From: a virus
Length of the DNA: 64,000 nt
Strand: one strand, 5' to 3'
IMG/VR virus record: IMGVR_UViG_3300042503_000838
Coordinates: 32,001 to 96,000 of that record
Within the stretch, counting starts at the first letter, position 1. Every line of letters starts with the position of its first letter. The notes under the pieces were generated by a model that was not told where the DNA came from, searched no databases, and saw nothing but the letters and a program-made list of their open reading frames with translations. A program made the translations under genes and the position numbers. Below, one piece after another: positions 2,800-61,473 of the stretch.

Positions 2800-4557
2800 C
2801 TAGAGGTCCTCTAGCCAATTAGAGGCTCCTGAGGTGGCGTAGAGGGCTTTTTGAAGGTCTTCAAGGGATCTGGCGTATCCAAGAGCATCAATAGAGAGAC
2901 CACCGTCACCTTGGACAAACTTTCGTTCCAGTTCCCACTGTTCTGCTTCCCTAGCAGCGATAGCTTTTTGTTCTGTAACAGCCATCGACTCAGTAAAATA
3001 CTGAACAGCCATTGCTAAGGCGTCTAAGCGGTCGTCATGCCTGATGCTGTTTTTCTCTTTGGTAATCCTTGTCAGCTGGAAAAACAGTTGATATTGGCTT
3101 CTGACTTCGCCTGGGTAGCACTCTGTGGAGGCAATGTCGTTAGTGATTACGTCAGTGTCAACCATGAGCCGGTGTTGGTTAAGGACAGGCTCAAGGGTGT
3201 CGATAATGCGGAGTTCCTTTTGCTTTGTGTGTCGAACCTCTTCAACAGTGCAGGGGTAAATCGTTCCGAGGTATCGCTTAAGAAGCTCGGAGAACATACC
3301 GAGGCCGAGGTTACTTTCAACAAGTATTTGCTTGACCTTGAACTCTTTAGCGATGAGGGCCAGCTTTTTGAGGTTCGGTTCGCTGTAACCACCCCTAAGG
3401 CCACCACTGGAGAGGAGGAACAAATTACCGTTCAAGTAAGCCACTACTGCGTAGCCAAGCTCGTCACTGCCGCGTCCAGAAGGGTCAACGGCCATGACCA
3501 CCCCGGTGTATTCAAGAAATTCATCCCCTATTTGGGCCGGTTTGTAAAACAGATCACCATGAAGACCGACTGAGGGTAGGTCAAGGGCTTTATCGCCGTT
3601 AGCAAGCCACACGACTTTATTAGGGCCGTTTTCACGGTTTAAACGGAACACACAAAGGTCTCTGAGCTTGAGAGGAAACCGCTCCTCATCACTCAGGCTG
3701 ATGTCCAACAGGAACTGCAGGTTGAACGTTGAACGACCGATAGAGAGCTGACGAGCTTCCAGTTCAGCCCAGTCAAAACGTTCAGGGTCTACAGGGTGTC
3801 CAGCGAGGCCTTTATCAGCTTCTAGATCGGCTTGGATCTTGGGTGCTAGACGGTCACCGTAATAGCTTTTAAGCTTTTTACCGGTTGGATACAGAGCAGG
3901 CCAGATCCTTACGTTGTAACCAGAGACCTCAAGCTTTGCGTAAACACTGTCTTGGGTGTGAGGCGTACCAAGAAACACGATCTCACCACCAGGCTTGATC
4001 ACAGAGTCAAACTCTTTAATGGACTCCCGGAGCTTGTCTCGAATCAGTTGAGTTTCACAGGACTGGGGTGTCTCAACGTCGTCAGCAACGATGAGGTCAG
4101 CACGGGAGCCAGTAATTTGACCAAAGATACCGCTGGAACGTACCGAAGGAGACTGGTCTGGTTTTGCGCCGTAAACGTCAAAAGCAACCTTACTAAACCG
4201 TTGCGTGTCGCTAGGGAAAAGGTCTTTGACCATAAACCAGTTGCGTAACAAGTCATGGCAAAACACGGAGAACGCATCAGCACGGTCTTGAGCTGCAGAG
4301 ATCACCAAGACCTTACAGTTTGGATCCCTACGGAGTCTCCAAAGTACGTAACCAGCTGTCAAAAACGACTTACCACAGCCTCGGTAAGCCATGATGATGC
4401 GACGGCTAGGACCGCTTTGTAGAAAGTCAGCTACTTGGTATTGGACCGGTGTTGGGCTAGGAAGCCGTAGGTAATGCCAAAGGTGAGTAGCAAAGATTGG
4501 AAAACTTTCTACCGCTTCCTGAATAATCTGTTCAGTCTGTTTGCTTTGCCGTGCCAT
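2800..4557 (-). CDS. Terminase large subunit, T7 gp19-like
   Basis: Walker A-like AYRGCGKS, GQITGSRADLIVADDVE, LGTPHT, nuclease VDPSGRGSDE and HDDRLDALA. Confidence 0.95.
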   Translation of the reverse strand: MARQSKQTEQIIQEAVESFPIFATHLWHYLRLPSPTPVQYQVADFLQSGPSRRIIMAYRGCGKSFLTAGYVLWRLRRDPNCKVLVISAAQDRADAFSVFCHDLLRNWFMVKDLFPSDTQRFSKVAFDVYGAKPDQSPSVRSSGIFGQITGSRADLIVADDVETPQSCETQLIRDKLRESIKEFDSVIKPGGEIVFLGTPHTQDSVYAKLEVSGYNVRIWPALYPTGKKLKSYYGDRLAPKIQADLEADKGLAGHPVDPERFDWAELEARQLSIGRSTFNLQFLLDISLSDEERFPLKLRDLCVFRLNRENGPNKVVWLANGDKALDLPSVGLHGDLFYKPAQIGDEFLEYTGVVMAVDPSGRGSDELGYAVVAYLNGNLFLLSSGGLRGGYSEPNLKKLALIAKEFKVKQILVESNLGLGMFSELLKRYLGTIYPCTVEEVRHTKQKELRIIDTLEPVLNQHRLMVDTDVITNDIASTECYPGEVRSQYQLFFQLTRITKEKNSIRHDDRLDALAMAVQYFTESMAVTEQKAIAAREAEQWELERKFVQGDGGLSIDALGYARSLEDLQKALYATSGASNWLEDL

Positions 4558-6905: not shown

Positions 6906-7120
6906 ACGCCCCTTAACGTGGCTCTAAGTTTCCTGGCATTTTTAATAATCTCTTGACCACGAGGCGTAGTTTTCAAGGCGTTGTTAAGCTTTTTAAGATC
7001 AGCTGCCCTTTCCTCAGGTGACAGATTTGGTTCGTCGTCAACGGGACCAATCAAAAAGCTAGGACCACCAGCAACTTTGGTGTCCCGTTTCTTCATCCCG
7101 TAACCAGATTTACTTTTCAT
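6902..7120 (-). CDS. Hypothetical small basic protein
   Basis: ORF track; coupled overlaps on both sides. Confidence 0.55.
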   Translation of the reverse strand: MKSKSGYGMKKRDTKVAGGPSFLIGPVDDEPNLSPEERAADLKKLNNALKTTPRGQEIIKNARKLRATLRGV

Positions 7121-7209: not shown

Positions 7210-7499
7210 TAGGTAACTCCACGAAGTTTGTAACTTTTTGGTTTTCTATTATCAGCTCCAGGCATTTTATCTTTTGTACCTGGGCCAAAACCACGACGAT
7301 TTTCTGGCGTATTCCAGTGGCGACCTCCGTGCCAATTATGTTGAGCGGGAGAAACGTCACGAGGAAGTTCGTTTAATTTGGCGTCTAAAAAAGTACGGTT
7401 TTTACGCGGTACATCGGAATACAGTCGATCTTCTCTAGCAGGTGAAGAGAAAATTTCAAGCAAGCTTTTACGTTTTTGTTTAGGCATAGTCGTGCTCAC
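7209..7499 (-). CDS. Hypothetical basic protein
   Basis: ORF track; coupled in the late small-gene array. Confidence 0.55.
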   Translation of the reverse strand: MSTTMPKQKRKSLLEIFSSPAREDRLYSDVPRKNRTFLDAKLNELPRDVSPAQHNWHGGRHWNTPENRRGFGPGTKDKMPGADNRKPKSYKLRGVT

Positions 7500-40027: not shown

Positions 40028-40474
40028 TTAACAAGCCAAACCAACTTTATTTAAGCGTTGCTCGTACGTTTTTATGCGATGGCAATTGGCGCATAATACT
40101 TGGCATTTTTTTATTTCTTCTTTTAATGCCTCAATATTGGTTGTATGCATTTTGGCGATATCGCGTGATTTGGTAACAGGGTCTAAATGATCAAAATCAA
40201 GGGCAGCATGATGATCCTTGTATCCACATTTTTCGCAACCACGTTTTAATTTTTCATTTTTAATAATTTTTGCATTACGTTTTTGTGCTCTTTTTGCGGC
40301 ATCGCGACAGCTAGTCTCTCTTTTTGCCCATGCCTCCGGACTGAGCCAATTCATCTGAAATGTTCCGTCTTTATTGATTCTTGATTTACGTCTATATCCC
40401 AAAAAAATCCGTCCGTCAAGACCGACTTCACCATACTTCCAGGGTTTATTTGTTTCAGGATTGACACGTTCCAT
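40028..40474 (-). CDS. HNH homing endonuclease
   Basis: GCEKCGY...ALDFDHLDP..K...EEIKKCQVLCANCHRIKT. Confidence 0.85.
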   Translation of the reverse strand: MERVNPETNKPWKYGEVGLDGRIFLGYRRKSRINKDGTFQMNWLSPEAWAKRETSCRDAAKRAQKRNAKIIKNEKLKRGCEKCGYKDHHAALDFDHLDPVTKSRDIAKMHTTNIEALKEEIKKCQVLCANCHRIKTYEQRLNKVGLAC

Positions 40475-42000
40475 TAATAATCAAGGTGTAGTTGGCCTTT
40501 GCGGGCGAGGCCATTGACTAACCATACTAACGCGTCGACCGTGTCATCGTGACTACTGACACCAAAGTTTGTCAGTTCTTCAAACATGTTTGTGAAGTTA
40601 CGGTAACGATTGAAGATAATCTTACGATCCTCGAACATGCCAATAATGCCACGGAAACGAGCCAATTTATCTGCTCTAAATCCCTTAACTGGATGCCACA
40701 GTAAGTTGTAAAGACCTTCGTTGCTTAGGCAGACTCTCTTGAAGTCCGCCTCCAGGGACGCTTGGTACTGGACTGCTTCCGACCAAATGTCGCAAGTTGA
40801 ATAAGTCGGAAAGTAATTCCCGTTATCATCGCGACCAAGAATAGACCAATCATTGAGTAGCTCTTTCATTGCGTCAAGTTTTTCCAGGTTGCCCATTACG
40901 CGAATGCGGCGATAATCAATGATGTGTATACGATCATCAACACGACCACCTAGCACCATTACGGTGTAGTCATTCTTTTCCTTGATGCCTGCGGATAGGT
41001 CGACACCAATGCCAAGAGCGTCAAATTCAGTTGAGATTTCAGCTTTAACAATTAGCTCTGGTGCCAGGGAGAGCTCGTTCTGTCTAATAACTTGATTCAT
41101 GTATTGGAACGAAAAGGCAATTGGCGCCTGCCTTTTCTTTTCCTTTAGGTAATCAAGGGACCACATCTCAGGCCAATAGGACTCTTCGTCTCCGGTGACG
41201 GGATCATTTTGAATTGCAGAGAGAACAATCTGCGTCCAGTTGTTTTGTTCGTTGAATGTGGTTGCGTGAATGTCATCATGTCGGAAGCGAGTTCCAAGGC
41301 AGATGGCCCGTCCACCTTCAAACATGGTTGGTGCAATCACTGCGTTCCAGTTCTCCTGCATCATTTTTCTGATGTCAGGGTTTGCGATATCCGCCGAACT
41401 TTTAATGGCGTCATCAATGCAAACCAGATGACTACGCTTGGAGGTCACCGAACCTTTGAGGCCTGCAGCGCAGAGCGTGAACTGTTCGTCACCCGTGGTC
41501 TCAATACCAGCAAAGCGATGGTCAATTGACCAGTACTCATTACTGGTTACGTTCTTGAGAAGACGTACCTTTGGAAATACTTCTTGGTAACGCTTGCTCT
41601 CAATGATACGTTTGATTGTTGCCGACTTAGAACGAGCAATGTCAACCGTATACGACAGATAAAGAATCTGAAGGGGCATCTTGGCTGTGGTATGCACGCC
41701 AATTGCCCATGCAGTGAACAACCCCAAGCTTGTGGACTTGGCGCTACCCCTGGGCGCCAATAAGTCAATATTGGGGCCAGCAACTTTAATCAGGCAGTTA
41801 CTATCTTCCCCTGTAACGAAATGACGATGCCATTCCTTATGGTGCTTCGCAGGAGGTTTATCGGCTACATACTCACAAAAAAAGCTGAAATCTTCTCGCG
41901 CTAACGCAAGAGAATCTTCGTTTTTTGGTTTTCTAAGTTGTTGGTTCTTAGCTGCTGCCTTTGCGTTTCGCCTGTGTGTTAAGTGAAGATACGAAGGCAC
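40474..42000 (-). CDS. Terminase large subunit (Terminase_6-like; unrelated to the T7-type TerL)
   Basis: LAPRGSAKST Walker A, VCIDDAIK Walker B, LGTRFRHDDI, GVDLS...DYTV, HDDTVDALVW. Confidence 0.93.
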   Translation of the reverse strand: MPSYLHLTHRRNAKAAAKNQQLRKPKNEDSLALAREDFSFFCEYVADKPPAKHHKEWHRHFVTGEDSNCLIKVAGPNIDLLAPRGSAKSTSLGLFTAWAIGVHTTAKMPLQILYLSYTVDIARSKSATIKRIIESKRYQEVFPKVRLLKNVTSNEYWSIDHRFAGIETTGDEQFTLCAAGLKGSVTSKRSHLVCIDDAIKSSADIANPDIRKMMQENWNAVIAPTMFEGGRAICLGTRFRHDDIHATTFNEQNNWTQIVLSAIQNDPVTGDEESYWPEMWSLDYLKEKKRQAPIAFSFQYMNQVIRQNELSLAPELIVKAEISTEFDALGIGVDLSAGIKEKNDYTVMVLGGRVDDRIHIIDYRRIRVMGNLEKLDAMKELLNDWSILGRDDNGNYFPTYSTCDIWSEAVQYQASLEADFKRVCLSNEGLYNLLWHPVKGFRADKLARFRGIIGMFEDRKIIFNRYRNFTNMFEELTNFGVSSHDDTVDALVWLVNGLARKGQLHLDY

Positions 42001-52290: not shown

Positions 52291-52513
52291 TGTAAAAATT
52301 TGGGGTAGACGGGTATTTTACGTACACAAATCAAAGTTTACTTCAAAGTAAGGCCCCTATATAGGTCAAAATAGGAAACAAAATTTCCTGACGCTTCTCA
52401 CAACACCCAACCTAAGTGAAATGTGGGAAGAAAAAAAAGAATGGCGGGTAGGTAGATAAGTATATCGGGGGCTGCGCATCCGTACCACGCAGGATACCAC
52501 CGCATTCAATTCA

Positions 52514-52816
52514 ATGGCTAGTGTTATTGCAACAATCAGCGAGCAAGAGCTTGATTATCGCATCGAGCAAGCAGCATTTGCGCTATTTGAAGGTAAGCGA
52601 GTCAAGCTAAGAGCAGGTTTATTCCGCGCGAGTGGAATTACACCGAAGCAACTAATGGATCAATTACTCCAGACCTTGTATTGCCAAGAGCTAGAGATGA
52701 TCCAGAGTGAGTATGGCGTCGCGTGTGAGTATATCGAGCCACGACAGTGGCGAGTAATGATTACACGAAAGCCTGAAGATTATAGCTTCGTTGTACAAGC
52801 AACCTGCATTGGTTGA
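52514..52816 (+). CDS. First early-region hypothetical protein
   Basis: ORF track. Confidence 0.6.
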   Translation: MASVIATISEQELDYRIEQAAFALFEGKRVKLRAGLFRASGITPKQLMDQLLQTLYCQELEMIQSEYGVACEYIEPRQWRVMITRKPEDYSFVVQATCIG

Positions 52817-52828
52817 CGGTTACATCTT

Positions 52829-52850
52829 CCCCTGGGCAACCAGGGGTTTA
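52829..52850 (+). terminator. GNRA-capped hairpin / terminator
   Basis: CCCCTGG-GCAA-CCAGGGG-TTTA. Confidence 0.65.
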
Positions 52851-53006
52851 TATAGCCCTCAATGTGTGTAAATCAACACAATTCCGTACTATTTCATCGC
52901 GCATATGGGGCGCCGGCATCTTAGCACACCTGTGTTCATATAGAACAGTTGGCTAATGTCCACCGGATATTATGTGCATATCCCGACGTGAAAGGTCGGG
53001 ATTAAA

Positions 53007-53032
53007 ACGTCAAGCTGGACGTTAAACGTAGC
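53007..53032 (+). ncRNA. Pseudoknot motif copy 1 (weaker; preceded by hairpin TCCCGAC/GTCGGGA at 52981-53001)
   Basis: ACGTC-AAGCTG-GACGT-TAAAC-GTAGC; loop GCTG pairs with TAGC. Confidence 0.45.
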
Positions 53033-53057
53033 ATTGACTCTTTACTAACTCAACAAC

Positions 53058-53246
53058 ATGACCTCATTCAAGAACTGGGCCACATCCGTCTGTGTTGCAG
53101 CAATCATCATCGGCATCGGCACGCAAGTAATGATGCACCAACTAGATCAAGCAACTGCACAGCAATGTGCTAATCACGACTGGCCCAAGCAAGCACACGA
53201 CATCCACATGGATTGGTGTGCGGCTAACAATTATTCAACCAACTGA
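53058..53246 (+). CDS. Small membrane-anchored early protein
   Basis: ORF track; TM helix; QQCA.HDWP...H..WC motif. Confidence 0.7.
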   Translation: MTSFKNWATSVCVAAIIIGIGTQVMMHQLDQATAQQCANHDWPKQAHDIHMDWCAANNYSTN

Positions 53247-53294
53247 GTACCAGGTGTGATGCCAGGGGATCGAATCCCCTACTCAGTATTGCCA
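53242..53294 (+). ncRNA. tRNA-like mini-element (7-bp acceptor stem plus T-arm, no anticodon arm)
   Basis: ACTGAGT-[15 nt]-AGGGG-ATCGAAT-CCCCT-ACTCAGT-ATTGCCA. Confidence 0.55.
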
Positions 53295-53325
53295 TCCACT
53301 GAAGGTGGCTATAACTCAACTCAAC

Positions 53326-53535
53326 ATGACTGCACTCAACCTACGTAAGAACACTGCTCAGTTCCTATTGAGCACTGCTCAGTCTCTATTGAGCACAGCA
53401 TCTTTTATTGAGCAAGCCAAGGTTCCCAACAAGGAAGATATTGGCGAAAAGCTGAACGAGTATAGAACTCGGGCTGCGGCACTTATGATGCCGAACGACA
53501 TGGCATTCGTTATCACACCTAAGACTGAAGCCTGA
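53326..53535 (+). CDS. Hypothetical early protein (start MTALNLRK)
   Basis: ORF track 53305..53535; ATG with C/A-rich leader at 53326. Confidence 0.65.
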   Translation: MTALNLRKNTAQFLLSTAQSLLSTASFIEQAKVPNKEDIGEKLNEYRTRAAALMMPNDMAFVITPKTEA

Positions 53536-53593
53536 CTCCTGCACTAAGGGCCTATGGGCCTTTTCTGCAGGACTCAACATCCTGTCATCAAAC
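53532..53593 (+). repeat. Intergenic structured repeat A, copy 1
   Basis: CTGACTCCTGCACTAAGGGCCTATGGGCCTTTTCTGCAGGACTCAACATCCTGTCATCAAAC; similar to 54031-54091. Confidence 0.9.
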
Positions 53594-53610
53594 CTACCGA
53601 GCTCAACTCA

Positions 53611-53832
53611 ATGCTCTGCTACTATCCACACGAAGGTGCCACCGAACGCATCACTTGGCATGGTGGGGAATCAACCATGCTTCACTACCAGGTGCAAGTA
53701 GATGACTACAAGGGAGATCCTGATTGGATCGAGCGTGAATCTCAGACATTCATGGGAGGAATGCCTTGTGGCACCAAGGAACTACTAGCTGCAATGTCTG
53801 ATTACTACCAAAGCATCGTTCAACCTTACTGA
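53611..53832 (+). CDS. Hypothetical early protein (start MLCYYPHEG)
   Basis: The ORF-track start at 53554 lies inside repeat A; ATG at 53611 has the typical leader. Confidence 0.6.
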   Translation: MLCYYPHEGATERITWHGGESTMLHYQVQVDDYKGDPDWIERESQTFMGGMPCGTKELLAAMSDYYQSIVQPY

Positions 53833-53833
53833 C

Positions 53834-54034
53834 ATGAACAACAACTACTTCACAAACGCTGTGCTTGCCCTCGTTATGGGCGCAGGAGCAGGCATGCTGC
53901 TATCTGCTGGAGCACAGCAACTACTCAACAAGCACTACGTCAAGACATGCCCAGCAAAGCCAGGGCATCAACTCATATACATGCGTAGCTTTCTAGGCGA
54001 TGCATACTATTGCTTAGATAAGCGCACACTCTGA
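53834..54034 (+). CDS. Small membrane-anchored early protein with C-x-C motifs
   Basis: ORF track; TM helix. Confidence 0.65.
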   Translation: MNNNYFTNAVLALVMGAGAGMLLSAGAQQLLNKHYVKTCPAKPGHQLIYMRSFLGDAYYCLDKRTL

Positions 54035-54091
54035 CTCTTGCACTAAGGGGCTTCGGCCCTTTACTGCAGGACTCAATATCCTGCATCAAAC
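54031..54091 (+). repeat. Intergenic structured repeat A, copy 2
   Basis: CTGACTCTTGCACTAAGGGGCTTCGGCCCTTTACTGCAGGACTCAATATCCTGCATCAAAC; C-UUCG-G tetraloop. Confidence 0.9.
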
Positions 54092-54108
54092 TTGTAGCTC
54101 AACACCAC

Positions 54109-54306
54109 ATGAAACACACAGTTCGTTTGGAACCAGGGCGATTTATCCACCTTGATTCTTACTATGCGTCTCATGAGACACGCCTTAGTAAGATCTGCGT
54201 GGTAGCCCTGACACTAACCATTGCCGCACTCACTGCAGGTGCAGTGATCGGCATGGATATCACAAACCCAACTCCTACTCAACACCATGACAACACTCAG
54301 CGCTAA
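54109..54306 (+). CDS. Small membrane protein
   Basis: ORF track; TM helix. Confidence 0.6.
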   Translation: MKHTVRLEPGRFIHLDSYYASHETRLSKICVVALTLTIAALTAGAVIGMDITNPTPTQHHDNTQR

Positions 54307-54625
54307 CATCAAACTTATCGAAGATCGCATCCAGGAACTCTGTGATGCACTACAAGATCACTTTTACAAACAGTACCAACGTGTCTGCACATATGAAATT
54401 GTGCGAGGCGTTAAGTACTACAAGATCATCCACGTCTGCAACCCTGGCTGTGAACGTGAAGGCAGGTCAGTCCATGCATTTGTCGCAAGGCAAACAGGGA
54501 CTGTATACAAGCCTGCCTCATGGAAAGCACCAGCGAAACATGCCAGGTACCAGCTACTAGATGACGGATCATTTGCTAGGTGCCTAGAAAAAGCAGACTG
54601 GGCTGGAGCGTACCTCTACCTGTAG
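54287..54625 (+). CDS. Conserved cyanophage hypothetical (KYYKII...SVHAFV...G.VYKPASWKAPAKHARY)
   Basis: Recognisable recurring phage motif. Confidence 0.75.
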   Translation: MTTLSANIKLIEDRIQELCDALQDHFYKQYQRVCTYEIVRGVKYYKIIHVCNPGCEREGRSVHAFVARQTGTVYKPASWKAPAKHARYQLLDDGSFARCLEKADWAGAYLYL

Positions 54626-54672
54626 TCACACCACAGGTAGCGTACCACCCTCGCATCACACTACATGCGTTG

Positions 54673-54701
54673 TTGCATAGCTAGCAACCAGCATGTAACC
54701 T
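54673..54701 (+). promoter_or_regulatory. Sigma70-type early promoter inside nested inverted repeats
   Basis: TTGCAT-N17-TAACCT with TG extension; TACATGC/GCATGTA and GTTGC/GCAAC repeats. Confidence 0.65.
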
Positions 54702-54723
54702 AACTCAGCACCAACCCAACTCC

Positions 54724-54939
54724 ATGGAACTCCTCAATCAATTTGATGTTGCTAACCCTGATCACGTCTCAGTGATTACCAGGGATGGCAAGGTTATTAT
54801 CTCCATCCGCAAGGATGGGACAGATGTAACTATTGGTATTCCCCATGGGTCTAGCAACAACATCTTTAACACAACCCCCCGGCCCCCTCTACAACAGCCA
54901 GCACCACAGATAAAGGCTGTTAAGGAGGTAAGGCCTTAG
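54724..54939 (+). CDS. Hypothetical protein
   Basis: ORF track. Confidence 0.6.
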   Translation: MELLNQFDVANPDHVSVITRDGKVIISIRKDGTDVTIGIPHGSSNNIFNTTPRPPLQQPAPQIKAVKEVRP

Positions 54940-55002
54940 TTGTTTTCTTGATAAACAACGGTTATTAGGATTCCAAGTAACTGAACTCACCCCAACACTC
55001 CA

Positions 55003-55377
55003 ATGAAATCACGCATCTCTGTCCTTAAAGAAGACCAGATCTGGGCACTGCGTTGCAAAGGATATCGCTACGACTTGATCGCTAGCATTGTCAACTGCAG
55101 CCCAGTATCTATGACACAGGTACTCCGACGGGTAAGGCAACGTCCTCCCGTCAAGGAAGACCCAATCAAACGTGGCCGTTACCGTGGCTTCCTAAGTGAT
55201 GCCCAGGTAAATGACATTCGTAACCGTGCCAAGTACAAGGAACCCATTGGGTTTATTGCCAGGGCTTACGACATGACACCAGAGGCCATCTATGCAATCG
55301 TCAGCTACAGGACCTATAAGGAACCCTGCAAAGATGATGTATTTATCCCACGCTTTGCTAACAGACTCATGAGGTAG
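55003..55377 (+). CDS. Tandem HTH DNA-binding protein
   Basis: IWALRCKGYRYDLIASIVNCS and LSDAQVNDIR...IARAYDMTPEAIYAI. Confidence 0.65.
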   Translation: MKSRISVLKEDQIWALRCKGYRYDLIASIVNCSPVSMTQVLRRVRQRPPVKEDPIKRGRYRGFLSDAQVNDIRNRAKYKEPIGFIARAYDMTPEAIYAIVSYRTYKEPCKDDVFIPRFANRLMR

Positions 55378-55393
55378 TACATAAGTATTATCA

Positions 55394-55414
55394 ATCACCC
55401 CACAATGGGGTGAT
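55394..55414. other. Perfect 8-bp hairpin preceding pseudoknot copy 2
   Basis: ATCACCCC-ACAAT-GGGGTGAT. Confidence 0.6.
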
Positions 55415-55421
55415 CCTACTC

Positions 55422-55450
55422 ACGTCCTGAGTAAGACGTTAAACTGCTCA
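55422..55450 (+). ncRNA. Pseudoknot motif copy 2
   Basis: ACGTC-CTGAGTAA-GACGT-TAAAC-TGCTCA; TGAGTA pairs with TGCTCA (one G-U). Confidence 0.65.
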
Positions 55451-55472
55451 CCGTTCCATCTCAACTCAGACC

Positions 55473-55616
55473 ATGATTGAACTTGATCAGAACTACAACG
55501 CTGACTTGCTTGATGCTATGGCAGACATTGCCTACGAGCAGGAGCAAGCCATGTTTGAATCCAATCAAGAAGAATGGATTCTAGTTGAACATCCACTTAC
55601 TTACCAAGGTGACTAA
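55473..55616 (+). CDS. 47-aa acidic peptide MIELDQNYNADLLDAMADIAYEQEQ...
   Basis: Manual translation; follows pseudoknot copy 2. Confidence 0.6.
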   Translation: MIELDQNYNADLLDAMADIAYEQEQAMFESNQEEWILVEHPLTYQGD

Positions 55617-55618
55617 CC

Positions 55619-56077
55619 ATGGCCAAATCAATTCAACGCACTGAAGTGTGGGATGAAGACCCAATCATTCTCTTCATCACACTCATCTCAATCTCAATCA
55701 CACTCATAGGAGATCTCATCTCATGTCTCTTCAACCTGAACAACTGCTCATCGCAGACGCTTTCGGCTACGAACCCTGTGGTCCAGACGAAGCTTCAGAA
55801 CAGTACCAAGCCTACGCAGACTTCCAAGACGCACCCAAAGGCGCCATCGCCTGCACTGGTAACGTCTACCGAAACAAGCGTGGAACCCTCCGTTGCTACT
55901 GGATCCCAACCGGTGGCAACTACTCAGCCCAGGACAAAGAAGATCTCGAAGGATGGTACGACGTCCCAACCAACGAAGAGATCGAGGAGTACACATTCGA
56001 CAGCTGCTGCCTCACTCCCTGTGGAGACGAAGTCGAACCCGATCATTCCGACAGCTGGCTTAGGATTCTCGGCTTGA
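55619..56077 (+). CDS. Membrane-anchored ORF overlapping 55723..56082 out of frame
   Basis: ORF track; start 2 nt after the upstream stop; TM helix. Confidence 0.45.
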   Translation: MAKSIQRTEVWDEDPIILFITLISISITLIGDLISCLFNLNNCSSQTLSATNPVVQTKLQNSTKPTQTSKTHPKAPSPALVTSTETSVEPSVATGSQPVATTQPRTKKISKDGTTSQPTKRSRSTHSTAAASLPVETKSNPIIPTAGLGFSA

Positions 56078-56082
56078 TCTAA
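55723..56082 (+). CDS. Conserved-looking hypothetical (…CLTPCGDEVEPDHSDSWLRILGLI)
   Basis: ORF track; acidic phage-like composition. Confidence 0.7.
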   Translation: MSLQPEQLLIADAFGYEPCGPDEASEQYQAYADFQDAPKGAIACTGNVYRNKRGTLRCYWIPTGGNYSAQDKEDLEGWYDVPTNEEIEEYTFDSCCLTPCGDEVEPDHSDSWLRILGLI

Positions 56083-56117
56083 CCTACATCACATAACACT
56101 AGCGTTATGCTGACATG

Positions 56118-56135
56118 CGCTATTCGCGAATAGCG
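56118..56135. promoter_or_regulatory. Perfect 18-bp palindrome CGCTATTCGCGAATAGCG
   Basis: Read directly; intergenic. Confidence 0.6.
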
Positions 56136-56148
56136 AACAGTAAGTACC

Positions 56149-56178
56149 AGGGTATTGCCAGATAACTACTGGCCTACC
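56149..56178 (+). repeat. 30-nt direct repeat B, copy 1
   Basis: AGGGTATTGCCAGATAACTACTGGCCTACC, identical to 56420-56449. Confidence 0.95.
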
Positions 56179-56204
56179 TATCTAAACTCAAAGCGATTAA
56201 CACA

Positions 56205-56411
56205 ATGCCACAAAGAATTTTTGTTTTCAAAACCACTGAAGTTACTTCAGATGGCAGACCTTATCTTCTAGCTATACCAGAAGATAAGATAACTGAACTG
56301 CGTACAACTTATGGCAGCGATAACATCTATGCAATTGTTAACGGCACGAAAGTCAATTGTTCCTTTGAGCGATTGATCAAAGAACTAGGTACGCCTCACA
56401 ACTGTTTTTAA
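56205..56411 (+). CDS. Hypothetical protein bracketed by repeat B
   Basis: ORF track. Confidence 0.65.
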   Translation: MPQRIFVFKTTEVTSDGRPYLLAIPEDKITELRTTYGSDNIYAIVNGTKVNCSFERLIKELGTPHNCF

Positions 56412-56419
56412 ACTCATCA

Positions 56420-56449
56420 AGGGTATTGCCAGATAACTACTGGCCTACC
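56420..56449 (+). repeat. 30-nt direct repeat B, copy 2
   Basis: Exact copy of 56149-56178. Confidence 0.95.
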
Positions 56450-56545
56450 CCCTGCACCCCTGCAAGAAGTACCAGAGGTGCACCCTTAATCTATTAGGGA
56501 ATACCTCTGTACTACACACCATTCATTCACTTACCAACCCAAGAC

Positions 56546-56833
56546 ATGACACCTACCTACCGTCAACCCAAACTTAATGAGTACCACAAACTCACAGATA
56601 TTCTTGAAGAACTACAAGCAATGTCTCAACGTGAGAGCAAGAGGCATGAAATAGATCAACACCTGACTCCATCCATGCTTGCTCTACTGGATAACGAGAT
56701 CATTCCCATACTTGAGAATGAACTGGAATGGGAACCATCAGATGCAGACCTTAGCTGTGATGGTGAACCGCCCCTGACTGCTGATGAAATGCACACTGCA
56801 GCATGGCGTCAGCACCAGGAACTGCATAGCTAA
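56546..56833 (+). CDS. Hypothetical protein (…GEPPLTADEMHTAAWRQHQELHS)
   Basis: ORF track. Confidence 0.7.
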   Translation: MTPTYRQPKLNEYHKLTDILEELQAMSQRESKRHEIDQHLTPSMLALLDNEIIPILENELEWEPSDADLSCDGEPPLTADEMHTAAWRQHQELHS

Positions 56834-56891
56834 CAGCCCTACCGCAACATTAAGGAATCATTAAGACCACTGGTCATGGCTTGCTGCCACC

Positions 56892-56900
56892 TGGTAGACT
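56892..56900 (+). promoter_or_regulatory. Extended -10 box TGG-TAGACT within a 10-bp inverted repeat (56871-56911)
   Basis: TGGTCATGGC/GCCGTGACCA flank the box; 38 nt upstream of ATG 56939. Confidence 0.45.
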
Positions 56901-56938
56901 TGCCGTGACCACACTCAGATCTCACTTGACACCACACC

Positions 56939-57142
56939 ATGTCCGACAGCATTCGCATCCCAGACTCAATTGATCTTCAGCGTCTACAAGCTATGCAGCT
57001 TGTAGCCAAGATGAAAGAATCAGCTGATAAACATGGGGTTGGTTTCATTGGGGGCTTCATTGCCCCCAATGGAGAGAAATTCATCATGACAAATATGGAT
57101 GATGAAGATACCCAAGCATTACTACCTGACAATTTGAAATGA
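56939..57142 (+). CDS. Conserved cyanophage hypothetical protein
   Basis: ORF track; DLQRLQAMQLVAKMK...GFIGGF. Confidence 0.7.
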   Translation: MSDSIRIPDSIDLQRLQAMQLVAKMKESADKHGVGFIGGFIAPNGEKFIMTNMDDEDTQALLPDNLK

Positions 57143-57219
57143 CAACCATTGAATTCTTGATTCTATTTGGAATTCTTGTTTGCTTTTCCTTGTTACTTAA
57201 CTATTTGATTTATGGATAA
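57139..57219 (+). CDS. 26-aa hydrophobic peptide MTTIEFLILFGILVCFSLLLNYLIYG
   Basis: Manual translation; ATGA coupling. Confidence 0.45.
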   Translation: MTTIEFLILFGILVCFSLLLNYLIYG

Positions 57220-57508
57220 ACACAAAGCAATGATCGATGAGATCATTGACAAATTCAACTTTGAACGAGTGCACATTGCTATGACAGCACTTGACTGGCA
57301 ATGGGCAACCACAGCAGGTAATGGATATGCAATACCAACACTAACCAAACTCAAAGCAATGGCACGTACTTTGTTACGTGAATCCTTTAATGAAACACAA
57401 GTTAGCAGTGGTGGTTTTGTAGCCACTTACCATCCCAAGGACGAACTTACCTCTGAGTATTTTGACTTGAAGTTTGTACTCCATCACGCAGATTCTTACG
57501 ATGACTAA
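57212..57508 (+). CDS. Hypothetical protein (IDEIIDKFNFERVHIAMTALDWQW)
   Basis: ORF track. Confidence 0.7.
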   Translation: MDKHKAMIDEIIDKFNFERVHIAMTALDWQWATTAGNGYAIPTLTKLKAMARTLLRESFNETQVSSGGFVATYHPKDELTSEYFDLKFVLHHADSYDD

Positions 57509-57851
57509 CCAACAACATCCCATTATTCCGCCACAAGATCTACGCAACAAGTGGCTTGATGAGGCGCCAAGTACCAGTGTGTACGACTATCTCATTGACA
57601 GCGCAGCACAATGGGGTGCCGACACGGAGCTAGAAGCCTGTTGTGAGTGGCTTGTAGCACACCAATGGCTTTCGGCATCTGGCGCATGTCTTTTAAATCT
57701 TCGTACTGACCGTCGTCCCAGGCCTCTTAGCCTGAAGGAACAGGCGTTAGCAGTACTTGAAGAAGAACCTGAAGATGCTAAAGAACTTATTGTGTTTGAC
57801 ACAGATCAAGTTAATCTCATCCGCCGCGCACTCGAGGCGTTACCTGAATGA
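57474..57851 (+). CDS. Cyanophage hypothetical, HPI.PP...AAQWG.D.ELEACCEW family (likely start 57501)
   Basis: Paralog of 62107..62439. Confidence 0.7.
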   Translation: MYSITQILTMTNQQHPIIPPQDLRNKWLDEAPSTSVYDYLIDSAAQWGADTELEACCEWLVAHQWLSASGACLLNLRTDRRPRPLSLKEQALAVLEEEPEDAKELIVFDTDQVNLIRRALEALPE

Positions 57852-58045
57852 CTGACAAATCACCCATCAACTTTGATAAGACCATCGCTGGGTTTAACAT
57901 AACCGAGCATGGTATTAAATCATTCACCAAATCAATTCAACTTGGTCCGTTCCAGATTACACTTAACGCTAGAGAATCTGGTGTACGTGGATCTATTTCA
58001 TTGCCTGGCACAGGCTTGAGCAAACGAAACATACGTTTGCTCTGA
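57848..58045 (+). CDS. DUF4236-like protein
   Basis: FTKSIQLGPFQITLN...GVRGSISLPGTGLS. Confidence 0.65.
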   Translation: MTDKSPINFDKTIAGFNITEHGIKSFTKSIQLGPFQITLNARESGVRGSISLPGTGLSKRNIRLL

Positions 58046-58059
58046 TCCAAGGACCTGGG

Positions 58060-58296
58060 ATGTCCTTAAACTCATCCAGTCCAACTCAACCTCATCTCAT
58101 GAACTCGACCGAACTCCACGCCATGATTGCCCGCATGGACAGCTATGGCGGCTCATTCGTATCCTCAATAGCACAAGCACTACGCTTTGCTGATCCAAAG
58201 AATCGGCAGCGTTTGCTTGATGCATTCCCTGATCTTGTCCAGAAGTATGGACCTCAAGGTCAGTTTGCCCAAGCCAAACAACTCACACAGGTGTAA
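58060..58296 (+). CDS. Conserved phage hypothetical (YGGSFVSSIAQALRFADPKNRQRLLDAFPDL)
   Basis: Recognisable recurring motif. Confidence 0.7.
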   Translation: MSLNSSSPTQPHLMNSTELHAMIARMDSYGGSFVSSIAQALRFADPKNRQRLLDAFPDLVQKYGPQGQFAQAKQLTQV

Positions 58297-58299
58297 CCC

Positions 58300-58548
58300 A
58301 TGCAAGTCCTAGCAATCGAAGACACATTCATTGACGGCAACGATGTCACAGTTACAGCAGTGGTTGACGAAATGCGTCTCATTCGCAAGTCGACTTACCT
58401 CGACCCTGATGAGTACGCTCCTGCACTATGCAGAACAAGCTTCGAACTGGATGAGGGAGAACAAATCCCTCTTGACGAAGATGGCTTCTGCGATTATCTT
58501 GCTTTGCTCAACCCTGACTGGGAATTACTCCCAGTAGATAACGACTGA
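58300..58548 (+). CDS. Acidic cyanophage hypothetical protein
   Basis: ORF track. Confidence 0.7.
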   Translation: MQVLAIEDTFIDGNDVTVTAVVDEMRLIRKSTYLDPDEYAPALCRTSFELDEGEQIPLDEDGFCDYLALLNPDWELLPVDND

Positions 58549-58555
58549 CATCACA

Positions 58556-58583
58556 CGTCCTGGACATGACGCTAAACTGTCCA
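58556..58583 (+). ncRNA. Pseudoknot motif copy 3
   Basis: CGTC-CTGGACAT-GACG-CTAAAC-TGTCCA; TGGACA pairs perfectly with TGTCCA. Confidence 0.65.
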
Positions 58584-58611
58584 CTCACTCCGAACCTACT
58601 CCGAACTTATC

Positions 58612-60354
58612 ATGCAGTTTCAATTACCCTCGAACCTTCAAACAGAACTCCTGGCTTACGATCCCAAGCTCAAGCAGCTTCAACGTGAGCAGAATCCTAT
58701 ATCAACCAAAGCTAAAGCTAAGTTTCCACTTGGTGCAGTCTTTGATCTGATACCTGCTGATGTTGTTACACCTACAAAGCTTGAGCAAGTAATAACAGAT
58801 CTCAATGCCAGGGGTGTAGCACATCGCCATACTCAGTTTACCAAGGTAACAGATATTGCTACACCAAGAGCACGCACTATTACCTATGCCATCATCTATC
58901 ACTATGAGAAGGTGTGGTATGCAGCATGGCTACCACCCAAAGGACAAGAGAATGATTATGTATATGGCTATGCATATGCATACAAGAATCTTGATTCAGT
59001 ACGCAAATCTATTCCAAGTTCGTTGCTTCAAAACAATAGTACAACTCCAGTTGAATATGTTAAGTACGGACGCAGTGAGTTCTGTGTTGTACGCCAGAAC
59101 TTAACCAAGGAAGATATTGCCAACGGCAATACAACTCATTGGTGGTGCCCTTGCTACGTATCATACGGCAAAGGCGGTAATATCAGGACAGCTATATCCG
59201 CATTTGAATCTGCACTTAGCCAAACCATTCCCAAGTGGGATGACTCACGTAAATTCTTTGATCGTATTGTCACCAATAATTGGGCTACAATTCTTGGATT
59301 AAAACGTTGCAGTAAGTATTGGAATACTTTTGCAGATCCAGAGCAAGCTATGCGTGATGCAATTCCATCTGCAGATTTGTTTTACGGAATAGCTGATACA
59401 TACAAGAAGGATAATAATGATTATCACAGCCAAGTATATTGCATTGCTCATCGCGTACTGCATATAGTTGGTACACCATTCTTCCGCAAGTGGATTCAAT
59501 CGCAATGCGATGAAGCCATTGCAATGTTTAATAACCCTGAGAACAATCTATTCTGCAAGATAACTCAACCTTGGAATCGTATTGAAAAACTAGTGCAGGC
59601 TATTGATTACGTTAATAATATTTGGCCGGACTGCCCTGTTGATTTCTATCAGAACCATATTGAATATCTAATTGGCACACGACTTGATCGTTACGTAGGT
59701 GAAAAGGCAAAGACTTGGTTGTGCACACATATGCAACCAGCTTCCTTCTTTCATATCCTCAAGAAAAACTACGAAGATCAGATCAATGATAAATCCAGTA
59801 GCTTGTCTTACTACACAAGCACTGAGATAGGCAAGCTTACATTCTATTTAACTGAATGGAATGACTCACTATCAATGCTTGATGATGTGCTCAACAATGA
59901 CATGACCATTGATCCGCCAAGGCGTTGGCGCCTGACTGAGTTCCATGATCATGTGCAAGCAGAAGCATGGAAGATCAAGCATCCAAACGCTAGCCTGCCC
60001 CAGGATCTATTCCCCTCACCTGTCAAGGTTGAAGTGGGTGATGAACGCTGGTCATTCTTCCAGCCTCATGACACACATCAATTGTCAGCATGGGGCCAGG
60101 CCGTACGTAATTGCGTCGGCAATGCCAGTGAGTATGCCACTGGTGTACGCAAGAAGAAACATTTCATTGTGCTCTGTATGGTTGACGGCAAACCTCAGTT
60201 CACTGTCCAACTCAAAGTTGAGATGGGCATGATGAGCGTTAGCCAGATCGTTGGTACATCCAACCAGCGGTTGACGCAAGAGCAGAAGGATTCCTACACA
60301 GAAGCCTTTGGCAAAGCGTTGAAACTTCAAGCAGATGCGCTAGAGTCTGTCTAG
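58612..60354 (+). CDS. PcfJ-like domain protein
   Basis: C-terminal EFHDH...LPQDL...P....QL..WGQAVRNCVG..Y...FIV...GKPQFTVQL. Confidence 0.75.
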   Translation: MQFQLPSNLQTELLAYDPKLKQLQREQNPISTKAKAKFPLGAVFDLIPADVVTPTKLEQVITDLNARGVAHRHTQFTKVTDIATPRARTITYAIIYHYEKVWYAAWLPPKGQENDYVYGYAYAYKNLDSVRKSIPSSLLQNNSTTPVEYVKYGRSEFCVVRQNLTKEDIANGNTTHWWCPCYVSYGKGGNIRTAISAFESALSQTIPKWDDSRKFFDRIVTNNWATILGLKRCSKYWNTFADPEQAMRDAIPSADLFYGIADTYKKDNNDYHSQVYCIAHRVLHIVGTPFFRKWIQSQCDEAIAMFNNPENNLFCKITQPWNRIEKLVQAIDYVNNIWPDCPVDFYQNHIEYLIGTRLDRYVGEKAKTWLCTHMQPASFFHILKKNYEDQINDKSSSLSYYTSTEIGKLTFYLTEWNDSLSMLDDVLNNDMTIDPPRRWRLTEFHDHVQAEAWKIKHPNASLPQDLFPSPVKVEVGDERWSFFQPHDTHQLSAWGQAVRNCVGNASEYATGVRKKKHFIVLCMVDGKPQFTVQLKVEMGMMSVSQIVGTSNQRLTQEQKDSYTEAFGKALKLQADALESV

Positions 60355-60405
60355 CGCGCACAGGCTTGCCAGTCGTAGCCTCGATACTAGGGCTGGCATT
60401 CATCT

Positions 60406-60630
60406 ATGACTGAGTACACCGACGACCAACTCCTAGCACAAGCACTCGCCAACATTGGTGAATACATACATACTCATGGCACACCTGATTATGTATTGAT
60501 TGATGAGCAGGATCCTCGCAATGAGGATGACTACGACACATGGAGCTATGGCACTGAGCCATTGCCACATGATCACACTTGGCAGCACACATCAATTGAT
60601 GTGAGTGTAAGTCCAAGTGAGCCCGAGTAG
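60406..60630 (+). CDS. Acidic hypothetical protein
   Basis: ORF track; its stop codon lies inside the tRNA 5' end. Confidence 0.65.
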   Translation: MTEYTDDQLLAQALANIGEYIHTHGTPDYVLIDEQDPRNEDDYDTWSYGTEPLPHDHTWQHTSIDVSVSPSEPE

Positions 60631-60697
60631 CCCAGCGGTAGTAGGCAAGCGACTTAAAATCGCTACAGCGTGAGTTCGAATCTCACCTCGGGTACCA
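60621..60697 (+). tRNA. trnL: tRNA-Leu(UAA) with encoded CCA and a short variable loop
   Basis: GCCCGAG/CTCGGGT acceptor, AGCGA-CTTAAAA-TCGCT anticodon arm, GTGAG-TTCGAAT-CTCAC T-arm, A73-CCA. Confidence 0.9.
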
Positions 60698-60720
60698 ACC
60701 TTTCATTCAACTCAAACACA

Positions 60721-61083
60721 ATGAACATCTTTGCCTGCTTCAAGCACATCGTCCCTGAGTTCCATGCGTACTCAGATCATGACAAGCGCTACAACATTGG
60801 CGCCACCTGGACCGCTCAGGATGGCCTGCAAGACTTCCATAACCTAGAGCTTCGCTACGTACACAACTCAGAGCGGCTGGCTCTCCAGGGGGATCCTCAG
60901 CCTGATGGGAGCTGGAAATACGTGGAGCCCAATGGCAATGTCCACACCATCAGCGCAGAACGTGCCAAGCACTTCATGGATCAGACCCATGCTCATGCCA
61001 CCATCATGTGCGACATGTTGGAAAAGTTAAGATCCTCTGGTGTGATGGGTGATGCACTAGACACCAGCGCTGAACCCGTCTAG
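60721..61083 (+). CDS. Hypothetical protein (start MNIFACFK)
   Basis: The ORF-track start at 60670 lies inside the tRNA. Confidence 0.7.
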   Translation: MNIFACFKHIVPEFHAYSDHDKRYNIGATWTAQDGLQDFHNLELRYVHNSERLALQGDPQPDGSWKYVEPNGNVHTISAERAKHFMDQTHAHATIMCDMLEKLRSSGVMGDALDTSAEPV

Positions 61084-61086
61084 TAT
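61058..61086 (+). promoter_or_regulatory. Sigma70-type promoter
   Basis: TAGACA-N17-TAGTAT, with CTAGAC/GTCTAG inverted repeat. Confidence 0.55.
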
Positions 61087-61102
61087 TCATGCGGAATGTT
61101 CG

Positions 61103-61127
61103 GACCCCGGCGCAAGTCGGGGTCTTT
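61103..61127 (+). terminator. GNRA-capped 9-bp hairpin with short U-tract
   Basis: GACCCCGGC-GCAA-GTCGGGGTC-TTT. Confidence 0.6.
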
Positions 61128-61131
61128 CTCT

Positions 61132-61473
61132 ATGAACCAACCTAATCTCATTAATCTTGATCTCGTTGATGAAGTAGTCTCCCGTGTTCCAAGTTGGACA
61201 TGGGCTGCAGTGCGTGACTCACTGGTAGCAAACCTAGTTGATGCCATGCCTGGTGCAGTGGTTGAACAACTTACTGGTGACTATGACAACTTTGATCGAG
61301 CAGAAGAAATCCTATTGGACTACTACAACCCAACTGAACGCAACCGTGATTTAATTATTGATGCATTCAAGATACTAGGTGATGAAAACACTCTGTATAT
61401 TCTTGATGCATTGCAATTGGATAAGGTTGCTGAACCACAAGACAATGCACCTTGCTCTATTGATACACAATGA
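61132..61473 (+). CDS. Hypothetical protein (start MNQPNLI)
   Basis: ORF track 61096..61473. Confidence 0.65.
   Translation: MNQPNLINLDLVDEVVSRVPSWTWAAVRDSLVANLVDAMPGAVVEQLTGDYDNFDRAEEILLDYYNPTERNRDLIIDAFKILGDENTLYILDALQLDKVAEPQDNAPCSIDTQ

Follow-up and report, generated by a model that had tools for sequence, protein, structure and literature searches.

Structured RNA elements between the early genes of an S-EIV1-like cyanophage: candidate punctuation of a polycistronic transcript

Results

Early genes and intergenic gaps

A series of folded RNA elements lies in the gaps between small genes in a 64,000-nt stretch of viral DNA, hereafter the window (bases 32001–96000 of the 125,842-bp IMG/VR virus record IMGVR_UViG_3300042503_000838). 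The minus-strand structural genes of the window extend to 51923, and small plus-strand genes begin at 52514. In protein searches, a 786-aa structural protein showed 77% identity with its counterpart in Synechococcus phage S-EIV1, and a 580-aa PcfJ-like protein encoded at 58612–60354 showed 43.5% identity with an S-EIV1 protein. The layout is the same as in S-EIV1, where small genes are followed by the 580-aa gene and then by those of ThyX, DNA polymerase A and SSB; downstream of the window, GP88-like, DNA polymerase A, SSB, DUF5895 and primase-helicase proteins are encoded on the same strand. Because of this likeness and the gene layout, the region studied is assigned on sequence grounds to the early/replication arm of a lake cyanophage related to S-EIV1. 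Megablast of the region against a GenBank phage collection gave no match. Using the 580-aa protein as a query, 24 related loci were fetched. Twenty-four small open reading frames (ORFs) lie on the plus strand within 52514–61473, and since tblastn found protein homologs for 21 of them in the related loci, the ORFs are regarded as genes.

An earlier reading of the letters of this DNA, called here the original prediction, stated that nearly every gap in this region holds a defined RNA structure followed by an unstructured C/A-rich leader lacking a Shine–Dalgarno (SD) sequence. This observation was confirmed. Twelve of the 15 intergenic gaps folded better than their dinucleotide shuffles, with z values from −2.3 to −6.1 (all z ≤ −2.3). 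The gaps without a significant fold were 54940–55002, 57143–57211 and 58549–58611, the last of which contains a pseudoknot, a structure beyond the reach of nested folding. In each gap fold, the last ~20–30 nt before the ATG were unpaired. The 29 plus-strand leaders (25 nt upstream of the starts) contained 13% G and 34% C versus 22% G and 25% C in the region, and SD-like words occurred in four of them, while the late genes on the opposite strand have A-rich leaders with more SD-like words. The word ACTCAAC was concentrated in the early region, with seven copies in one 5-kb bin versus 0–2 in most others.

The gap elements are better preserved than the surrounding coding DNA, which is the reverse of what is expected for neutral spacers. 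Short BLAST searches of the related loci detected gap stretches of 20–47 nt with 90–100% identity where the 580-aa protein is only 37–48% identical, and the proteins of relatives sharing such elements are in general only about 40–70% identical. Scanning the window with Rfam models, both at gathering thresholds and by E-value (E ≤ 5), detected only a tRNA-Leu, as did ARAGORN; no other element is in Rfam. The features are listed in Table 1.

Table 1. Folded elements and related features of the early region (window coordinates)
Feature	Position	Strand	Evidence
Terminator-like GC hairpin with U-run, after the first plus-strand gene (52514–52816)	52829..52846	+	terminator scan
Degenerate pseudoknot variant: stem 1 and UUAAAC loop kept, stem 2 only ~3 bp	53008..53033	+	pattern
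tRNA-like Y element (53242–53287) and second hairpin (53291–53309)	53242..53309	+	fold z −2.3
HP2 copy 1: UGA base, conserved lower stem, variable top, then YCCUGY	53533..53584	+	fold z −4.1; model R2 82 bits
HP2 copy 2	54032..54085	+	fold z −6.1; model R2 82.7 bits
Hairpin in gap 54626–54723	54662..54697	+	fold z −2.6
9-bp hairpin immediately upstream of the pseudoknot at 55423–55450	55394..55414	+	gap fold z −3.2
Canonical pseudoknot, 22 nt before ATG at 55473	55423..55450	+	model R1 46.7 bits; covariation
First repeat A copy, a hairpin; left joint of 271-bp gene cassette	56149..56178	+	repeat search, fold
Repeat A copy 2, right joint	56420..56449	+	30/30 identical to copy 1
Long hairpin, common to this phage and L002 only	56468..56513	+	gap fold z −4.0
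Long hairpin, common to this phage and L002 only	56871..56911	+	gap fold z −2.8
Canonical pseudoknot, 7 nt past TGA 58546–58548, 28 nt before ATG of the 580-aa PcfJ-like gene	58556..58583	+	model R1 47.7 bits
G-poor, SD-less, unpaired leader (example of the type found after every element)	58584..58611	+	fold and composition
11-bp hairpin, 8-nt loop	60367..60398	+	fold; relatives
tRNA-Leu(UAA), encoded CCA	60621..60697	+	covariance model RF00005 59.3 bits; ARAGORN
Terminator-like hairpin, U-rich tail	61102..61125	+	terminator scan; fold z −3.3

The pseudoknot and its covariation

The pseudoknot is a 28-nt H-type structure composed of CGUC, a C, a 6-nt arm, a U, GACG, UUAAAC and the complementary 6-nt arm. 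The original prediction counted three pseudoknots in the region, of which two are canonical, while the third (53008–53033) proved to be a degenerate variant, not matched by the covariance model R1, that also occurs in four related loci (L016, L019, L020 and L021). Orthologs of the copy at 58556–58583 precede the 580-aa gene in nearly all relatives, and further copies in this genome were found at positions 94–139 (with stem 1 GGUC/GACC), 3441–3486 (before SSB) and 7295–7340 of L262.

A first count of 48 distinct copies gave 13–16 double changes at three pairs of stem 2. A wider search, carried out with a covariance model that contained stem 2 only and did not encode stem 1, collected 113 distinct copies from 39 sources. 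Among these, three stem-2 pairs showed 23–48 double changes each with 3–5 unpaired cells and many U-G pairs. One pair of stem 1 was CG in 99 copies, UA in eight, GC in four and UG in one, with none unpaired, and a second covarying pair was UA in 108 and AU in three. Thus, covariation supports both helices of the H-type pseudoknot, and in the sense strand only; with its many U-G pairs, the structure is strand-specific. Invariant positions were the C of loop 1, the A that closes stem 2, the three A letters of loop 3 (AAA) and several letters of stem 1, and the C ending loop 3 was kept in 107 of the 113 copies. The pseudoknots of this clade are not followed by a conserved U-tract; the sequence downstream is unpaired and variable. 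The promoter of a phage RNA polymerase is an unlikely explanation of the motif, as no such polymerase turned up in the large ORFs tested, and the covariation is specific to one strand.

Outside the clade, tandem copies were observed in L165 (1375–1430), L126 and L140, one of the L165 copies having a compensated stem 1, GGUC/GACC, and an AUAAAC loop. L140 is an unrelated viral contig that also carries a true pistol ribozyme (RF02679, 41.3 bits, 6968–7029), and its two tandem pseudoknots (7253–7322) lie ~220 nt downstream of it. The pseudoknot itself might be a pistol-related ribozyme in minimal or split form, which would cut the transcript by self-cleavage: its layout resembles the Rfam Pistol consensus over the 5′ half of the latter, with a 4-bp hairpin, loop nucleotides pairing downstream and an A-rich AUAAAUA linker, its core is invariant across phyla, and the pistol of L140 is a near neighbour. 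However, the element is only 28 nt long, has neither the P2/P3 stems nor the G-U cleavage strand, and is followed by the unstructured and variable sequence described above, while RF02679 matched the pseudoknot neither in the window (E ≤ 5) nor in L140. A ribozyme is therefore considered very improbable.

Position and spread of the pseudoknot

Of 110 distinct copies, 86 have 19–22 nt between the last pair of the pseudoknot and the ATG and nine have 28 nt, and the leader in between contains 4.7% G and no SD motifs. On the other side, the upstream stop codon is exactly 5 nt from stem 1 in 19 of 49 copies and 6–8 nt in 11 more, and for ORFs above 30 codons it is never nearer than 5 nt. These stops include each of the three codons, and half of the copies lie away from any stop. 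A stop 5–8 nt before stem 1, as seen in these 30 of 49 copies, would suit a recoding pseudoknot, but this function was rejected: after TGA 58546–58548 the same frame stops again at 58567–58569, inside the pseudoknot, and the use of all three stops and the many copies not near a stop count against it as well.

At least seven gene families are preceded by the pseudoknot (PcfJ-like, SSB, GP88, DUF5895, 256-aa, 65-aa and 47-aa). For the SSB gene, whose ATG is at L262 3498, the copy ends 21 nt upstream, and S-EIV1 has a copy before its annotated SSB. With so many gene families downstream of the pseudoknot, an operator dedicated to SSB was rejected. The upstream neighbours belong to at least seven gene families in the case of the 580-aa gene and at least eight in the case of SSB. 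This contrast between a changing upstream and a fixed downstream neighbour is weak evidence, since clustering works badly on the short ORFs upstream.

Scanning for the pattern yielded over 115 stretches in IMG/VR and over 120 in GTDB genomes. In searches of this size the pattern by itself is expected to have chance matches, but with a 7-nt gap a stem 2 of at least 5 bp was also formed in 105 of 119 viral and 39 of 60 genome matches, versus ~2% by chance (a rough estimate). The GTDB contigs are titled Saccharibacteria, Selenomonadaceae, Lachnospiraceae, Ruminococcus, Bacteroidales, Zixibacteria and others, and phage-like contigs from Saccharibacteria, Firmicutes, Bacteroidales and others carry the pseudoknot. 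Genes adjoining it across the contigs include SSB, capsid scaffold, GP88, UDG and HNH families. A near-identical unit consisting of the pseudoknot, a hairpin, an SD site and a 203-aa gene, in which the pseudoknot lies 53 nt before the start, was noticed in L028, L043, L049, about 15 other viral contigs and the Ruminococcus contig L153.

Outside the clade, the pseudoknot is followed by ordinary SD sites, with the next start at a distance of 3–87 nt, and U-runs come after some copies in Firmicutes-type contigs. There are at least six independent cases in which it lies 6–12 nt past the stop of the last gene of a convergent pair, and one independent case in which it heads a divergent unit. The minimum of ~5 nt after the stop also holds for these unrelated phages. 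As the stop spacing is shared among phages while the AUG spacing varies, the constant feature is the position just past a stop codon, and the fixed pseudoknot–AUG distance is, as far as these sequences indicate, special to the S-EIV1-like clade.

A hairpin built on the stop codon

The original prediction also named two repeat families, and two pairs of repeats were indeed found, a 30-nt repeat A and a 53-nt element (53532–53584 and 54031–54083), though its labels could not be mapped onto them one to one. The 53-nt element is a hairpin, designated HP2, of 3+7+7 bp with 1×1 and 2×2 interruptions, the tops being longer in some copies. Alignment by MAFFT with RNAalifold misaligned the variable tops and saw only a small alternative hairpin; it was replaced by a covariance-model alignment, and a model made from five copies collected 43 distinct ones. 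In this alignment, 95% of the cells were paired, with double changes at 14 of 17 pairs, compared with 34–44% paired when the partners were slid; the alignment was fitted to the model, so these counts are biased in favour of the structure. The tops vary completely from copy to copy, while the lower stem UCCUGCA/UGCAGGA is conserved, and U-G pairs make HP2 strand-specific as well.

The first paired triplet of HP2 is the UGA or UAA stop codon of the upstream ORF (≥40 codons) in 32 of 38 copies, and the next ATG follows its 3′ end at 25–37 nt. Nearly all copies are followed by a third segment, YCCUGY, which is able to pair with the 3′ arm; the arm, the loop and this segment form a 7-bp inverted repeat. 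Since the third segment can pair with the 3′ arm, a ribosome standing on the stop codon would free the arm for an alternative small hairpin, and HP2 might thus act as a ribosome-driven switch. No conserved U-tract was found after the HP2 copies of this clade.

The genes downstream of the two elements are largely distinct: PcfJ-like, SSB, DUF5895, 256-aa and a few small genes for the pseudoknot, and families of 60–133 aa for HP2, only one family having both. This specificity, the tight pseudoknot–AUG spacing, the persistence of the pseudoknot before the 580-aa and SSB genes despite changes of the upstream neighbour, and the third segment of HP2 would fit translational junction devices, in which the folds regulate initiation on the SD-less leaders, or insulate it, without any cleavage. 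A protein or the 30S subunit would then use the pseudoknot as its operator or docking site, governing a regulon of replication genes and lying, as in T4 gene 32, with an unstructured leader before SSB, while HP2 would be flipped by the upstream terminating ribosome, freeing its 3′ arm to pair with YCCUGY. Against this stand the variable start distance, the ordinary SD sites and the convergent gene ends outside the clade; moreover, neither state of HP2 covers the AUG, and no partner protein was identified. Such devices are a possible but rather unlikely explanation, and the main rival of the one favoured in the Discussion. A bolder reading, to which we give a clearly smaller chance, is that the pseudoknot represents a new, phylum-spanning phage RNA class with a direct activity, either an insulator or docking element for ribosomes, placed between the terminating and the initiating one and substituting for the SD contact, or a minimal pistol-related self-cleaver, which together with the HP2 switch would form a two-class code ordering the early and replication genes of S-EIV1-like cyanophages.

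Promoter and terminator signals

The terminator scan detected a GC hairpin with an immediate U-tract only at 52829–52846 and 61102–61125. In the gap holding the former, the first 46 nt are 91–100% identical in five related loci (L013–L016 and L021). Sigma-70-like promoters were not enriched (13 sites versus 16.9 expected), as judged by a simple Escherichia coli-type consensus. These data bear on the idea that every micro-gene is a transcription unit of its own, as in the cassettes delimited by PeSLs (promoter early stem-loops), the hairpins acting as terminators and their flanks as DNA-level promoters or operators. Besides the two terminator-like sites, the GC hairpins with short U-runs inside many HP2 copies, the U-runs after some pseudoknots in Firmicutes-type contigs and the inverted repeat of HP2 as a potential operator speak for it. 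On the other hand, the lack of enrichment of promoter-like sites, the lack of conserved U-runs after HP2 or the pseudoknot in the clade, the strand specificity of both structures, covarying positions that are not expected inside a promoter and the lack of a phage RNA polymerase among the ORFs tested make this organization improbable.

tRNA-Leu, a tRNA-like element and other hairpins

The original prediction of a real tRNA overlapping a stop codon was correct. The TAG of the upstream ORF (60628–60630) coincides with positions 8–10 of the tRNA-Leu, and the next ATG is 23 nt past the CCA. The tRNA-Leu occupies the same junction in 18 related loci; the upstream ORF ends inside it (offset 9 or 17) in most of 14 loci examined, and the next ATG lies 18–25 nt past the CCA in 12 of 13. 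Two types of tRNA-Leu(UAA) are present at this junction across the relatives (L005, L007, L011, L013 and L016), one of 76–79 nt and one of 86 nt with a long variable arm, and the 14 nt preceding the tRNA are conserved among the loci examined. Lying between ORFs, the tRNA leaves no room for a terminator of its own. Since it is conserved, overlaps the upstream ORF and is closely followed by an ATG, its maturation must sever read-through transcripts; judged from the sequence, cutting at this junction seems nearly forced, unless the tRNA is useless. After the cut, the downstream mRNA would begin with a leader of ~20 nt, as long as the one that follows the pseudoknot.

The proposed tRNA mimic corresponds to the Y element at 53242–53287, whose fold is indeed tRNA-like: a 7-bp acceptor-like stem containing the TGA stop 53244–53246, a small arm, and a T-like arm of 5–7 bp abutting the 3′ strand. 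It is not a tRNA, as it was neither called by ARAGORN nor matched in Rfam at E ≤ 5. Six homologs showed double changes at seven of the 21 pairs.

The hairpin at 60367–60398 is near-invariant in 17 relatives, loop included, and precedes the ATG (60406 in this phage) by 7–9 nt; its one compensatory change, A-U to G-C, occurs in this phage. Folding recovered both long hairpins of the original prediction (56468–56513 and 56871–56911), while the hairpin at 54662–54697 had no match in related loci.

Gene cassettes between the elements

Repeat A was seen only in this phage and in its closest relative, L002, which has 93% identity in the 580-aa protein. L002 contains a single repeat A and lacks exactly 271 bp, comprising one repeat A, the leader and the 68-aa ORF 56205–56411; the suggestion that the repeats may double as recombination joints is supported by this cassette. 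Gene content is patchy: several genes have homologs in 0–5 of 22 loci and others in 15–21 of 22 (not every locus spans the whole region), and same-orientation copies of the elements flank variable genes. The exact indel and the repeated copies around variable genes would also suit repeats that are mainly recombination or mobile-DNA joints with no role in RNA. This is hardly credible, because pairing is kept by compensatory and wobble changes in hundreds of drifting copies and because the spacing to stop and start codons is fixed.

Some further features of the window were noted. A conserved GGGGCUGCG...CGCAGGAU hairpin, also present in S-EIV1, lies 5′ of the first plus-strand gene (52462–52513; ~3660–3725 in L026), where the early transcript may have its 5′ end. 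The ORFs 55619–56077 and 55723–56082 overlap by ~355 nt on the same strand in different frames, both having tblastn matches in 12–13 related loci; this could reflect a frameshifted or overprinted gene, or matches confined to the non-overlapping N-terminus. ORF 53326–53535 contains a 21-nt tandem duplication (53349–53390, 86% identical). Two different large-terminase genes are present in the window, at 2800–4557 and 40474–42000 (PHROG 38, E 5e-107 and 2e-76).

Discussion

RNA punctuation of the early transcript

We tentatively favour, at somewhat less than an even chance, the explanation that the host polymerase produces a polycistronic early/replication transcript and that the gaps punctuate it as cis-acting RNA modules, whose folds define and protect RNA ends by the stop codons and keep the SD-less leader open. 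It is favoured because the elements are conserved, their stems covary, their spacing to stop and start is fixed and a tRNA-Leu is embedded among them, and also because the pseudoknot follows the stops of convergent genes outside the clade and because of the cassette indel and the patchy genes. The junctions would be built in the order of a stop inside or just before a stable fold, a G-poor unpaired SD-less leader of ~20–30 nt, and the AUG. The transcript would be cut beside the folds, as seems nearly forced at the tRNA-Leu and may hold for the other elements, and each cistron would keep a folded end that resists exonucleases, while the leader would stay single-stranded for SD-independent initiation. 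Near-identical copies of an element would at the same time serve as crossover points at which small gene cassettes are added or removed.

The position of the pseudoknot can be related to the dimensions of the ribosome. In the mRNA channel, pairs can stay closed if they start ~11–12 nt from the P-site codon, and the exit side of the ribosome ends some 15–18 nt upstream of the start codon. The pseudoknot would therefore be squeezed exactly between terminating and initiating ribosomes, where neither needs to unwind it, and may be meant to stay folded.

The interpretation given in the original prediction, in which host RNases (P, Z, E and III) would cut a long early transcript into stabilized mRNAs, is partly supported: the RNA structures, their covariation and the variable cassettes hold, while the RNase cuts are putative. 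Of the checks proposed with it, the search for covariation in homologs was positive for the pseudoknot and HP2 stems, with compensated changes in the Y element, and gene content between the elements varied among relatives.

Several observations weigh against punctuation. A cut 5′ of the tRNA or the tRNA-like element would remove the stop codon of the upstream ORF. The type of element tracks the downstream family, pseudoknots going with replication genes and HP2 with small early genes, which fits class-specific regulation better than generic end protection, although shared ancestry with synteny could also explain it. The conserved third segment of HP2 suggests a switch. The loop and stem 1 of the pseudoknot are near-invariant across phyla, which is not obviously needed by a mere stable cap, and a tRNA-like CCA tail was looked for after the pseudoknot and none is present.

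At least four conserved RNA structures new to Rfam are described here, one of them spread through phages of many bacterial phyla, and the order of stop, fold, ~20-nt leader and AUG would be a regular scheme by which dozens of SD-less genes are expressed from a single transcript. Initiation and mRNA-end formation in cyanobacteria are directly testable in this system, as both S-EIV1 and its host are in culture. The elements mark sites where small phage genes are gained and lost, and the pseudoknot, being compact, could be put to use as a portable insulator or stabilizer between cistrons.

Comparison with known systems

As the original prediction supposed, the motifs look like neither T7 RNase III sites nor PeSLs; there is no sequence match to either. 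The T7 sites (R0.3–R1.3) are likewise irregular hairpins between consecutive early genes of one transcript, and the ~17 bp of HP2 (roughly two helical turns) with a 2×2 internal loop has a comparable shape. HP2, known as a predicted fold, differs in having the stop codon in its stem and a third pairing segment, and in the cyanobacterial host.

The H-type pseudoknot at the 5′ edge of the unstructured SSB leader recalls the T4/T2 gene 32 operator, but the present pseudoknot precedes at least seven families, follows genes in unrelated phages and is unrelated in sequence.

Processing at tRNAs has precedents in the tRNA punctuation of mitochondrial transcripts and in the RNase P cleavage of bacterial operon mRNAs. 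Here, too, a real tRNA and a tRNA-like top half lie between ORFs without spacer, and their maturation would cut the mRNA; unlike in those systems, the upstream ORF runs 10–18 nt into the tRNA, so that the cut would remove its stop, and a true tRNA is present at a single junction of the window.

CA-rich leaders that act independently of an SD are known from the omega sequence of tobacco mosaic virus and from CA multimers in E. coli. The leaders of this phage are similarly unstructured, C/A-rich and SD-less before the starts, but they have a fixed length after a fold and a recurring ACUCAAC-like word, and are known here from sequence.

PeSLs combine a sigma-70-like promoter with a terminator stem-loop in T4-type phages (PMC2839356, PMC4122927). 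Like the elements described here, they are short conserved motifs around genes that are small and variable, and they bound the indels that separate close relatives, as repeat A does for the 271-bp cassette; the difference is that the motifs here are covarying RNA folds with no promoter signal by the E. coli-type consensus. Finally, pistol (RF02679) has three stems, P1–P3, a pseudoknot and a G-U cleavage site (PMC4604425). It shares with the phage pseudoknot a short hairpin, a loop pairing downstream and an A-rich linker, and both are common in phage DNA, but the phage pseudoknot has only the P1-like stem and the loop pairing.

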